Shown here one piece after another: positions 45,381 through 49,565 of a stretch of 64,000 nucleotides of DNA (its first letter is position 1; each line of letters opens with the position of its first letter). A program made the translations under genes and the position numbers. Below the pieces are notes generated by a model. It did no database searches. It saw only the letters and a list, made by a program, of their open reading frames with translations, and was not told the DNA's origin. The stretch spans positions 320,001 to 384,000 of the forward strand of contig CAWHAA010000008.1 of assembly GCA_963827275.1 (NCBI GenBank), read 5' to 3'. This DNA is from an uncultured Spirochaetota bacterium. Lineage in GTDB: Bacteria > Spirochaetota > UBA4802 > UBA5550.

Positions 45381-46083
45381 TCAGATTCCGCGGATCTCGC
45401 ACCGGTCAGCGAAGGTGCGGGCGAAATCCCTGAACTGTATAAGGGTCTCCGCCGGGTATGGTTCGATCGCGCTCCATGAAGGATCAAGGAGCGGGACATC
45501 GCGCTGGAACTGCTGGAGGTAGTAGTTGCTGACCCGGCCGATCGCGTCCCTGATGGCGGCAAGGTCGTCACGCGTTACGTATCCGGGGACGCAGGTGGTG
45601 CGTATTTCGTAATCGATCCCCTCCGACCTTATGATATCGAGGCTCTCCGCTATCTTCCCGAAGTCGGCGTCGCGGTTGGTCACCGCGCGGTAGTTTCCCG
45701 GCGAGGTCTTTATGTCGATCGCCGCGTAGTCGATGAGCCCTGTTCTTGACAAGGCGCGCAAGGACATGCGGGAGCAGCCCGTTGGAATCGAGTTTCACCG
45801 CGAGGCCCATCTCTTTTATTGATCCGATGAAGGAATCTAAGTTCGGGGAGAGGGTCGGCTCGCCGCCGGTGATGGTGACGCCATCAATGAGTTTTTTTCT
45901 CTTCTGTAGATGAGCGCGAGCGCTTCCTCGTTACCCGTCAGCGCCAGGTCATGGGAGTCGGCGACGAGGTCGGGATTATGGCAGTATCCGCATCGGAGGT
46001 TGCAGCCCCCGCGTAAACAGGACGGTGCATATCTTGCCCGGGAAATCGATGAGGGAGGTTTTATAGATTCCCCTGATATTCAT
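45381..46083 (-). CDS. nrdG: Anaerobic RNR activating radical-SAM protein (frameshifts near 46011, 45908 and 45741)
   Basis: KTSLIDFPGKICTVLF, GCNLRCGYCHNP, ITGGEPT, VKLDSNG, DIK, YEIRTT, YYLQQF. Confidence 0.88.
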
Positions 46084-46229
46084 AGGCGGGCGCCTGTTCC
46101 AGTCCGGTAGACTTTTCTTTCGCGTGAATTCTTCCTGCTTGCCCTTGTTCCACTGGTTTACCGGCCTGAAATATCCGACAACGCGGGAATAGACTTCGAC
46201 AGGGACTCTTAAGCTTCTTTCTTGTTCAT
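46080..46229 (-). CDS. Small stand-alone NrdD C-terminal glycyl-radical peptide (about 48 aa; indels near both ends; absent from the ORF track)
   Basis: GGGAG SD + ATG at 46229; VPVEVYSRVVGYFRPVNQWNKGKQEEF with the Gly codon at 46176-46174; the shifted frame gives ERKVY…* with an ATGA overlap on nrdG. Confidence 0.75.
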
Positions 46230-46330
46230 GTATATATCTCCCGTAGTATAGTAGTATAACGGCCTATGCCCGAAACGGGGGCCGGCAGGGACCCGGATTA
46301 TGTCGGATTCCCCTGATATAGTAATCGGCA

Positions 46331-48367
46331 TTATGCCCCGTCAACTTCAATACCAAATTCGATAAGCTGGTCCTCGGAATGGTCATAGGGACAGTAATTT
46401 ATGCGCCCCGGAGATATACCCGTGCACCGGGCATACGCTGAACGTCGGCGTAATGGTAAAATAGGGCAGCGAGTAGTTTTCCGCGATTTTTTTCACCAGC
46501 ATTCTTTACCGACTGGATGTCATTGATCTTTTCACCGAGGAAGAGGTGCACGACGGTACCGCCGGTAAACTTCGTCTGGAGCTCGTCCTGGTGGTCGAGC
46601 ACGTCGAACAGGTCGTCGGTGTGCCCCACCGGCAGGTGGACGGAATTCGTGTAATAGGGCTCCTGCCGCCCGACGTCTTGATGTCCCGGAAGAGCTTCCT
46701 GTCATGCATGGCGAACCGGTAGCTCACGCCCTCGGCCGGAGTGGCCTCGAGGTTGTAGAAGTTCCCGGTCTCCTCCTGGAACTTCATGATCCTGTCCCGC
46801 ATGAAATCGAGGATCTTGAGCGCGAAGTCCTTTCCCTCGATCGAGGCGATGTCGGTGTTGAGCATGTTCAGGCAGGTCTCGTTCATGCCGATCAGGCCGA
46901 TGGTGGAGAAGTGGTTGATCCAGTATTTCTTGTTCCGTTCGTAAATGCCTGAGAGGTAGTGCTTTGTGTAGGGATACAGGTTGTTTTCGGTGAAATTTTC
47001 CAGCGCCTTGCGCTTGATCTCCAGCGAGTTTTTCGCAAGGACCATGAGGCGCTCCAGCGTCTCGAAGAACTCGCCCTCGCTCTTCGACGTATAGGCGATG
47101 CGCGGCAGGTTGATGGTGACCACGCCGATGCTGCCGGTGAGGGGGTTCGCACCGAACAGGCCGCCGCCCCGCTTCCGGAGCTCGCGGTTGTCGAGCCGGA
47201 GGCGGCAGCACATGGACCGCGCGTCCTCCGGGTCCATGTCGGAGTTTATGAAATTCGCGAAGTAGGGGATGCCGTATTTCGCGGTCATCTCCCACATCAG
47301 GTCGAGCCGGGCGTTGTCCCAGTCAAAATCCTTGGTGATGTTGTAGGTGGGGATCGGGAAGGTGAAGATCCTGTTTTTCGCGTCGCCTTCCGACATCGCC
47401 TCGGCGAAGGCCATGTTGAACATGTCCATCTCTTCCTGGAAGTCGCCGTAGGTCTTTTCCCGGACCTCGCCGCCTATGATGACGTATTCGCCGGCGATGT
47501 TGCGCGGCACCGTGAGGTCCAGGGTCACATTGGTGAAGGGTGTCTGGAACCCTACCCGGGTGGGGATGTTCATGTTGAAGATGAACTCCTGGAGGCACTG
47601 CTGTCACCTCTTCATAGGAAAGCTTGTCATACCAGATGAAGGGCGCCAGGTACGTGTCGAAGTTGGCGAAGGCCTGGGCGCCGGCGGATTCGCCCTGGAG
47701 CGTGTAGAAAAAATTCACCACGTGGCCCAGGGCGCTCCGGAAATGCTTTGCCGGCCTGCTCTCGACTTTCCCCGGCACGCCGCCGAATCCGCGCATGCAG
47801 CAGGTCGCGCAGGTCCCATCCGACGCAGTAGGCGGAGAGGAGCCCCAGGTCATGGATATGGAAATCGCAGTTCACGTGCGCGTTCCGGATCTCCGGCGGA
47901 TAGATCCGCTCGAGCCAGTATTTCGCGGTTATCGCCGTGGCGATGTGGTTGTTCAGCCCCTGGAGGGAATAGCTCATGTTGCTGTTTTCGTTGACGCGCC
48001 AGTCGGAGCGGTCCAGGTAGCTTTCGATCAGTTCGAGCCCCTCGGTGAGAAGGCTTTTTCCTTCGCGGATCTTCCGGTGCTGCTCGCGGTAGATGATGTA
48101 GGCCTTGGCGACCTTGGCGTGGCCCCGCTCGATGAGCATTTTCTCGACCAGGTCCTGGACGTTCTCCACCGTGGGTATCCTGCCGTCCTTGTAGATGATG
48201 TTGAGGATGCCAATGATCGAGTCGGAGATGGCCTGGGCGGTGTTGCGGTCGCTTCCGCCGACGGCCTGGGCGGCTTTGTAGATGGCATCGGTGATTTTTT
48301 CCGGGTAGAAGGGGACGATTCTTCCATCGCGTTTTCTTATGAAGCTTGAATTGGTGTCGTCAGCCAT
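46331..48367 (-). CDS. nrdD: Class III anaerobic ribonucleoside-triphosphate reductase large subunit with ATP-cone (about five frameshifts)
   Basis: IRKRDGR…KI..AI ATP cone, DWRVNENSN, HIHDLG..SAYCVGW, FTFPIPT, RSMCCRL, TGSIGVVTIN, NLEATPAE, FTGGTVVH, CPVHGY…YCP. Confidence 0.9.
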
Positions 48368-48771
48368 CTGGTAACTCCGGGAAAACGAGAGGTTAATTTT
48401 GTATATACAAAATAATGAAATGTCGTTAAAAAAATAGAATTAGTTACTGCGTCAGGAAGAGAAATACTAATGTGACATAATCTTTCATGGTTGCTATGCT
48501 ACTTGTATATCCCATCATAATAAAAAGTCAATAAAAAATATTATGTCTCTCTAAAAAATTTTTTAAAAACTCATGTAAATTAAACAATGAGTTCAATTTA
48601 TACTTTTTTTGAAATTATTTTAAACAGGAAAACAGATGGCATGAAATTAACCCCGGGTATATTAATAATGAATAAAAAAAACTTGTATTCAGGGACTGAA
48701 GCTGGATTAATAAAATAAACCATGGGGAGCAAGCAATCTCGTATAATAAATTTTCACCTGAAGGTGCAATT

Positions 48772-49053
48772 ATGATAGAATTGACACATGTTGAAGGGAA
48801 AAATATCGGGAAACTGGTGCTGTACGCCCTATCCACCTGCATCTGGTGCAAAAAAACCAGGCAATTGCTCGATGATCTCAGGGTCGAGTACTATGTTACC
48901 TATGTTGACCTCCTGGAGGGCGATGATAACTCGTACGCAAAAAGCGAGGTAAAAAAATGGAACCCGCAATGCTCATTCCCCACGCTTGTCGTCAATGAGG
49001 AATCGTGCATCACCGGCTATGATGAAAAAAGGATACGGGAGCTGGCCAAATGA
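48772..49053 (+). CDS. Glutaredoxin / NrdH-like redoxin
   Basis: LYALSTCIWCKKT…NPQCSFPTLVV..I.GY. Confidence 0.88.
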   Translation: MIELTHVEGKNIGKLVLYALSTCIWCKKTRQLLDDLRVEYYVTYVDLLEGDDNSYAKSEVKKWNPQCSFPTLVVNEESCITGYDEKRIRELAK

Positions 49054-49565
49054 TGCCGCCGCGCGATCCTGCTCCGCCTGTGGTGGAAGCGCTCTACGAT
49101 GAGCTGCTCGACGACGCAGGCCGCGCCGGGTATTATCTGAACCCCGACGAAGCGTTCACGAAGGACCTGGTCCGGGGCCTCCTCATCAATGAAGAGAGGT
49201 ACGGGTACCGGGCCTGTCCCTGCAGGCTCGCGGCCGGGAGCCTGCGCGATGACAATGACATTATCTGTCCCTGCGATTATCGCGATGCCGATCTCACTGA
49301 ACACGGCGCCTGCTACTGCGGGCTGTATGTTTCGGGCGGGATACATGGGGGCAGGGAAGCCCTCATGCCGGTACCGGAGCGGCGTCCGCCGGAAGAGGAA
49401 CGCACGATGAAAAAAGAACAATCGGACCTGCCCCGGGATGCTACCGCATTGAGCTTCCCCGTGTGGCGGTGCAGGGTGTGCGGCTACCTCTGCGCCCGCG
49501 AAGAACCGCCGGAGATATGCCCCGTCTGCAAGGCAAAGCATGACCGGTTCGAGCGGTTCATGTAA
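49050..49565 (+). CDS. Ferredoxin:thioredoxin reductase catalytic-type protein fused to a rubredoxin domain (FDR-like)
   Basis: YG..ACPCR, ICPCDY, GACYCGLY; C-terminal WRCRVCGY…PPEICPVC. Confidence 0.9.
   Translation: MMPPRDPAPPVVEALYDELLDDAGRAGYYLNPDEAFTKDLVRGLLINEERYGYRACPCRLAAGSLRDDNDIICPCDYRDADLTEHGACYCGLYVSGGIHGGREALMPVPERRPPEEERTMKKEQSDLPRDATALSFPVWRCRVCGYLCAREEPPEICPVCKAKHDRFERFM

Follow-up and report, generated by a model that had tools for sequence, protein, structure and literature searches.

A class III ribonucleotide reductase encoded by two genes, with its glycyl-radical loop on a separate and widespread small peptide

Where would a class III ribonucleotide reductase (RNR) carry its glycyl radical if the gene for its large chain, nrdD, stops before the glycyl loop? 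In the standard teaching, class III RNR is a single-chain enzyme that is irreversibly destroyed by oxygen, and the question is raised by an nrdD-nrdG operon in a 64,000-nucleotide (nt) stretch of DNA from an uncultured Spirochaetota bacterium (assembly GCA_963827275.1, contig CAWHAA010000008.1, positions 320,001 to 384,000), hereafter the window. An earlier note, made from the letters of the window only, had proposed that nrdD ends directly past its metal site without an RxxGY motif, and the tail of the frame indeed reads CPVHGY...CPYDHS...EVDGA before a TAA at 46333-46331; it had also placed a GGGAG Shine-Dalgarno word (46242-46238), the ATG of a mini-gene (46229) and then nrdG, the activase gene, downstream, and these positions are borne out. 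Judged from comparative sequence analysis, the two-gene class III RNR is real, widespread and not peculiar to the source genome. The two-gene architecture itself is regarded as practically certain, and it is considered highly probable that the peptide docks on the NrdD body as an obligatory small subunit bearing the glycyl radical installed by NrdG. The central proposal of a separate glycyl-loop subunit is upheld by conservation, by selection, by the lack of RxxGY in split bodies, by a relative with unlinked halves and by a docking prediction, with the radical itself presumably placed on the peptide by analogy.

The nrdD pieces of the window (48367-46383) cover positions 1-521 of the 562 of PF13597, with PRK08270 as the best family, and a short piece at 46212 covers positions 533-560, the mini-gene as a whole reaching 533-562; the nrdG pieces match the TIGR02495 family. 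An intact same-genus body scores 1041 bits against NF006126 (cut-off 548), covering 4-655 of 684, and 516 bits against TIGR02487 (cut-off 326), and a same-genus NrdG scores 202 bits against TIGR02495 (cut-off 131). In the source genome (4.13 Mb, 11 contigs, 92% complete), a six-frame motif scan revealed no second NrdD-type RxxGY loop and a search of the whole assembly no NrdD body besides that of the window.

The region had been flagged as indel-rich, and comparison of the operon with a same-genus genome (84% DNA identity) disclosed about 13 indel events: five in nrdD (at about 47796, 47603, 46670, 46503, and 46396), four in the mini-gene, and four in nrdG. As assembled, the ATG at 46229 is out of frame with RVVGY and gives six residues before a stop, and the RVVGY frame continues into nrdG. 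The nrdD indels are absent in the relative and in short-read contigs, and the four extra single bases of the mini-gene (at about 46218, 46206, 46125, and 46101) are absent from same-genus genomes and missing in the short-read contigs of all four runs, from four studies, that gave contigs of this kind (about 96% identity besides gaps), one contig covering 46031-46440; run X1 returned short scattered matches only. In all four runs, the list of differences leaves the TAA, the ATG and the glycine codon untouched. With the short-read differences applied, the proposed reading from the ATG to RVVGY, which fails in the assembled letters, is restored as 54 codons that end at 46063-61 and overlap the nrdG start by 23 nt in another frame, the stop and the Shine-Dalgarno word being retained; the product would weigh about 6.5 kDa rather than the 5 kDa or so first suggested. 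Because the short-read contigs drop the extra bases yet keep the TAA, the nrdD stop is taken as real and the peptide-NrdG fusion as an artefact. That radical-domain/activase fusion, which had been held open as an alternative, was rejected as the product of two extra bases, on the evidence of both the short-read contigs and the relatives.

A search of relatives, as the earlier note had suggested, yielded a peptide match in 41 of 41 genomes, from genus to order and with the source genome included. Of the 57 matches listed, 56 lie in open frames of 54-107 amino acids (aa), and the remaining one, a weak match, is inside the 969-aa frame of a second, different NrdD. An NrdD tail is present at 26 of 29 relatives' loci, with the stop 35-49 residues past the zinc site in every one of the 26, and an ATG-started separate peptide of 50-65 aa with its own stop is found at all 29, overlapping the nrdG start by 4-50 nt, usually 23. 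Over 13 same-genus mini-genes, the ratio of non-synonymous to synonymous substitution rates is lowest in the core (0.02) and rises to 0.12 upstream and 0.14 downstream of the motif, and the peptide is, by this codon-based measure, under purifying selection. In G288, the one family member without a peptide match, nrdD lies at a contig end. When the sample was widened to 401 genomes of the phylum, 194 matched the peptide, and other families were found to be split or fused, sometimes both within one family. A second, different NrdD of 964 aa, with a SACCR finger, a long C-terminal extension and an adjoining nrdR-like gene, was also observed (L045:3090-5981, genome G034).

A motif scan of GTDB genomes, which sampled one NrdD subfamily (120 loci from an estimated 6400 stretches, 2 of 64 parts), comprised 62 fused loci, 56 split loci, and two extra copies, four loci first called orphans having been re-checked. 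The split loci span 13 named phyla, none of them being among the archaeal loci of this sample, and their share is 36/41 in Pseudomonadota, 3/8 in Thermodesulfobacteriota, and 1/14 in Actinomycetota. On plasmid pHG1 of C. necator H16, a body of 676 aa that lacks RxxGY is encoded together with a 66-aa product, whose gene is annotated nrdD, and with NrdG, and a Ralstonia megaplasmid has the same split layout. The peptide profile is matched by at least 7731 clusters of short proteins, fragments possibly among them, and the matching database entries name many Pseudomonas species, P. aeruginosa not being among the names. Entries of 50-65 aa such as WP_011154154.1 (C. necator H16) are the same peptides, filed as “anaerobic ribonucleoside-triphosphate reductase”, “oxidoreductase” or “hypothetical protein”, with the enzyme's name conferred via the profile match. 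The surmise that short NrdD-tail genes were already annotated, with no functional description, hence agrees with the database entries and with the open-access literature, in which no account of a split class III RNR or of the peptide as a subunit was found, although subscription papers could hold a mention.

In a FastTree tree of 98 bodies, from which L045 (mislabelled) and L117, L160, L182, L112, and L179 (long or intein-like) were left out, the split and fused states require 10 changes, seven of them forced by well-supported branches, which indicates that fission or re-fusion has recurred. Three of the loci left out (L117, L160, and L182) have NrdD frames of more than 1000 aa on long branches, and perhaps contain inteins. 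Long linkers between the zinc site and the glycyl loop were seen in the fused NrdDs of L139, L144, L172, L197, L184, L164, L206, L065, and L066; some of the long-linker proteins resemble a split tail followed by a peptide start and are candidates for re-fusion.

The residues expected of the enzyme are divided between the two chains. RxxGY occurs in none of the 52 aligned split bodies, the glycyl loop being encoded on the next gene. The M, C, and C of the finger motif MCCR and the PAE glutamate are invariant in all 52, as are the putative zinc ligands C542, H545, and C555, the fourth ligand apparently being a cysteine in 25 bodies and a nearby histidine in 27. On the peptide, R15 and G18 are invariant in 52/52 sequences, all of which match PF13597 and none PF01228 (Gly_radical of the pyruvate formate-lyase, PFL, type) at E 0.1. 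The peptide aligns weakly with the glycyl loop of T. maritima NrdD (E 0.012) and is 71% identical to the tail of a fused NrdD over 31 residues. Co-folding of body and peptide, which had likewise been advised, was performed with the pair of a relative (G010) and gave a score of 0.81 against 0.00 for the best control; among solved complexes, 116 of 157 attain this mark, and among mismatched pairs 2 of 215, the run agreement here being at least 87% of contacts and the predicted local distance difference test score at least 70 for the partner. The predicted interface holds about 200 contacts and includes the NxN flap and residues 440-446, and peptide residues 8-13 pair in the model with the zinc-site strands. 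According to PMC11226230, the fused tail of P. copri NrdD contacts the same elements, namely the zinc-site strands, the NxN flap, and the 440-446 region.

Glycyl activation and oxygen cleavage are both described for characterised NrdDs (PMC2795772 and PMC13450708), and the same chemistry may be envisaged for the two-chain enzyme. NrdG would abstract a hydrogen from Gly18 of the peptide, whose VEVY strand is predicted to lie on the zinc-site strands, and the residues that follow to contact both the NxN flap and the region of the PAE glutamate; the loop would enter the barrel and generate a thiyl radical on a finger-loop cysteine. Oxygen would then be expected to cleave the peptide, not the body.

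Extra peptide genes also occur away from nrdD, both in the chromosomes of relatives and in phage-like regions. Recurrent sites were noted for these copies (L043, L070, L226; L044, L046, L069, L227; L047, L224; L049; L050), which lie before a birA gene, convergent with an extracytoplasmic function (ECF) sigma cluster, near dinB, or in phage-like regions. Among IMG/VR sequences, 29 of 29 viral loci lack an NrdD body or NrdG match within up to 4 kb, and the 28 viral peptides parsed sit in frames of 49-146 aa. No NrdD body was found in ten whole viral records, four of them at least 90% complete, with a query that detects the body of the source genome as positive control. Only two cultured or deposited phage records match the peptide. 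The archaeal virus ANMV-1 (KP703175.1) encodes a 144-aa protein with cysteine pairs and a terminal RIVGY loop (L073:4680-5114), no nrdD being annotated within 5 kb of it. Since peptide copies kept alone are easier to explain if the peptide has an effect in trans, the distribution of these genes suggests such an effect.

Three readings would keep the radical on a single chain or deny the split altogether. The view that long-read indels have simulated the split, or that the peptide is merely the N-terminus of NrdG, could draw on the indels and on the assembled RVVGY frame that runs into nrdG; the short-read contigs, in which the stop is kept and the peptide ends at 46061 in a frame other than that of nrdG, and the separate peptides of all 29 relatives' loci refute it for this lineage, leaving it a vanishing probability. 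The joining of the two frames at expression into a single-chain NrdD, by readthrough, frameshifting, hopping or splicing, is also judged very improbable, though some observations favour it: the nearest short-read strains have a stop-free spacer of 99 nt that keeps the frame of nrdD, so that the TAA alone separates body and peptide in this species, the nearest genome (L014) is alike, and some fused NrdDs have linkers of 40-54 residues at the matching place. The earlier note's caution that the spacer was one error away from joined genes is sound as regards the open frame, but the TAA is unchanged in 4/4 runs. Over 93 split loci (95 rows minus L206 and L221, which are fused and had been taken for split; two pairs seem to be duplicate retrievals of one sequence), the motif stands in relations 0/1/2 to the nrdD frame at 26/40/27 loci, and at 3/5/5 of the 13 same-genus loci. 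The gap from body to peptide ranges from an overlap up to 185 nt, at 56 loci the motif's frame is closed by a stop that coincides with the NrdD stop or lies beyond it, and an ATG precedes the motif at 92, with a Shine-Dalgarno-like word before it at 83. In G053 (99% complete), a 683-aa body (L231, G053:C41) is followed by no peptide gene within 1.4 kb, and the only RxxGY peptide is on another contig (L234, G053:C3). Directly after the peptide gene of that genome comes a radical-SAM gene whose product is no typical NrdG. In G227, two peptide genes stand in tandem between nrdD and nrdG (L067:4177-4581), and a third copy is beside dinB (L224). The occurrence of all three frame relations, together with the unlinked halves of G053, makes recoding unlikely, and the spacer analysis made neither an intein nor a conserved RNA structure evident (seven pairs, with two-sided change in none). 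A single continuous NrdD in this lineage was rejected on the relatives' stops, the frame relations, and the short-read contigs. The third reading accepts two chains and places the radical on the glycine of the body's own CxxHGY motif, the peptide being an accessory. This glycine is invariant in 52/52 split bodies, and Siedow et al. (J Bacteriol, 1999) reportedly found that G650A of C. necator NrdD abolishes function and assigned the radical to Gly650, which, by a residue count on the C. necator record, we take to lie in CxxHGY. The same HGY/F glycine is, however, present in 57 listed fused NrdDs that also carry a normal RxxGY, and in an alignment with P. copri NrdD the counterpart of the body's zinc site is the CxxCGY zinc site, which precedes Gly711, and not Gly711 itself; the mutant would be accounted for by structural damage to the zinc site, and the peptide glycine is invariant as well. 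By this alignment, the body's HGY glycine is the zinc-site glycine and not the equivalent of the radical glycine, and the chance granted to the reading is slighter still than that of joined frames.

The peptide as radical-bearing subunit, which is preferred here, is not free of difficulties, and the C. necator mutant and the open spacer are joined by others that weigh against it. The finger cysteines are not among the named co-folding contacts, and the pass may reflect likeness to the single-chain structures 4COI and 8P23; docking is therefore supported, but not radical transfer. Elsewhere in the source genome lie genes for a class II RNR and for two glycyl radical enzymes of the PFL type, and with the former at hand the class III system need not be essential there. 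As regards oxygen, no clear pattern by phylum links the split to lifestyle in the GTDB sample. The split could also be a neutral and reversible gene fission, with the same architecture and the peptide a fixed subunit that confers no exchange or oxygen-repair benefit, and the chance of this is put only a little short of even. The 10 changes of state on the tree, seven of them forced, are what ready fission and re-fusion would give; few Actinomycetota loci are split, and anaerobic groups such as Thermodesulfobacteriota do have the split; and the predicted interface is large. What speaks against neutral fission are the extra peptide copies away from nrdD, in chromosomes and on the 29 viral contigs that lack both nrdD and nrdG in the vicinity. 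A further possibility is that the peptide is an exchangeable radical cartridge, activated by NrdG and loaded onto bodies, of which oxygen destroys only the peptide, so that cells and phages might tune anaerobic deoxyribonucleotide synthesis by its supply, and phages that bear nothing but the cartridge might boost or hijack the host enzyme. This proposal is a tentative one, held with rather less confidence than neutral fission, and exchange of the peptide after oxygen damage is possible to the same limited degree. The oxygen-economy rationale is a hypothesis that taxonomy does not support.

Should the peptide carry the radical, the part destroyed by oxygen would be replaceable, and a large part of one NrdD subfamily, with C. 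necator H16 and many Pseudomonas species in it, would need a third gene that is uncounted in the literature found; reconstitution from nrdD and nrdG alone would fail. Among glycyl-radical subunits, the peptide would be the first that is both obligatory and trans-acting and, if exchangeable, would provide the first spare-part system of a class III RNR, with a cartridge system in roughly half of this NrdD subfamily. The reported 1999 assignment of the C. necator radical site would have to be revised, and the small nrdD-like genes of phages would be explained. With a free 6.5-kDa natural substrate, direct tests would also become possible of activation by NrdG, of the insertion of the loop, and of oxygen repair.

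The coordinates of the operon and its neighbours are collected in Table 1. The redox pair that diverges from nrdD occupies the same position in the same-genus loci L031-L034 and L036, and does not adjoin nrdD in three loci of other families; this glutaredoxin-like and ferredoxin-disulfide-reductase-like pair is the likely reductant. The MCCR finger is also compatible with formate as reductant (PMC9669993).

Table 1. Features of the nrdD-nrdG operon and the divergent redox genes (window coordinates)
Feature	Position	Strand	Remark
nrdD body, ATP-cone and class III barrel, PRK08270 family	46331..48367	-	677 aa in intact relatives
NxN flap motif of NrdD	47978..48001	-	predicted peptide contact
Finger-loop MCCR motif (double-cysteine class III lineage)	47199..47216	-	alignment of split bodies
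Zinc site, C-x2-H then C-x3-H in this lineage	46376..46442	-	alignment
TAA stop of nrdD	46331..46333	-	short-read runs, relatives' loci
Spacer from nrdD to mini-gene	46230..46330	-	101 nt as assembled; 99 nt in short-read strains
Shine-Dalgarno-like GGGAG of mini-gene	46238..46242	-	sequence
Mini-gene, ATG 46229, stop 46063-61	46061..46229	-	54 codons without four extra bases
RVVGY motif in mini-gene, Gly codon 46176-46174	46191-46171	-	glycyl-radical loop and NrdD C-terminal tail
nrdG activase (TIGR02495 NrdG2), ATG 46083	45381..46083	-	start 23 nt inside mini-gene
Glutaredoxin-like gene, divergent from nrdD	48772..49053	+	candidate reductant
Ferredoxin-thioredoxin-reductase beta (PF02943) and rubredoxin-like domain (PF21349)	49050..49565	+	candidate electron donor to glutaredoxin-like protein

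Two motifs of the spacer are invariant in the genus, one just after the stop and the other, GACATAAT, at 46304-46297; they lie in a weak hairpin that shows no covariation. Starting with the nrdD stop, ten bases (46333-46324, minus strand) are unchanged across 11 same-genus sequences, and within them is GCCGAT, which resembles a sigma-28 -10 box; an internal promoter for the peptide and nrdG is possible. GACATAAT likewise does not vary among the spacers of 11 aligned same-genus sequences, and it turns up again at two places upstream of nrdD (48547-48540, minus strand; 48467-48481, plus strand) and at one upstream of the class II RNR gene of the source genome (G000:C5, about 763558). Genome-wide, TTGAC follows 7-13 nt later in 7 of 138 copies, as against 0-2 in five control bands, and the scan returned a mixed set of genes downstream. 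NrdR was not found in the source genome at its 92% completeness. The word may be a regulator site or a promoter element.

How, then, does this enzyme stand beside the systems already known? The comparison set consists of single-chain NrdDs (T. maritima 4COI/4U3E, P. copri 8P23, phage T4 1H78; PF13597, TIGR02487, NF006126/PRK08270), and all solved NrdD relatives found are single chains. The two-gene enzyme has in common with them the ATP-cone, the barrel, the finger cysteines, the PAE glutamate, the zinc site, the RxxGY loop, and the adjoining nrdG, and is unlike them in that its chain ends after the zinc site, before the glycyl loop, with loop and tail forming a separate gene. Methanosarcina NrdD3, like the nrdD of the window, has glutaredoxin-like and ferredoxin-disulfide-reductase-like genes nearby. 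The NrdD3 subtype, which lacks the finger Met as well as the active-site Glu, is nevertheless distinguished by a QCCR/A finger without Met, as against the MCCR of the split body, according to the definition in PMC9669993, section 2.5 of which provides the classification of the double-cysteine class III lineage. The peptide is comparable to GrcA/YfiD of pyruvate formate-lyase in being a small separate glycyl-radical-loop protein, and here too extra and phage-borne copies exist. Phage T4 Y06I is placed beside GrcA/YfiD as a spare part. GrcA/YfiD, however, has a PFL-type PF01228 domain in place of the PF13597 of the NrdD peptides, and it repairs a full-length enzyme after cleavage, whereas the split NrdD body never has the loop. 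Formate lyases are, according to PMC13450708 (2026), the only class of glycyl radical enzymes with identified spare-part proteins. The split class II RNR of Pseudomonas aeruginosa, NrdJa/NrdJb, offers a further parallel, its C-terminal part being the second gene of an operon; NrdJb (229 aa) serves disulfide exchange and bears no radical, unlike the glycyl-loop peptide, which would supply the radical itself.

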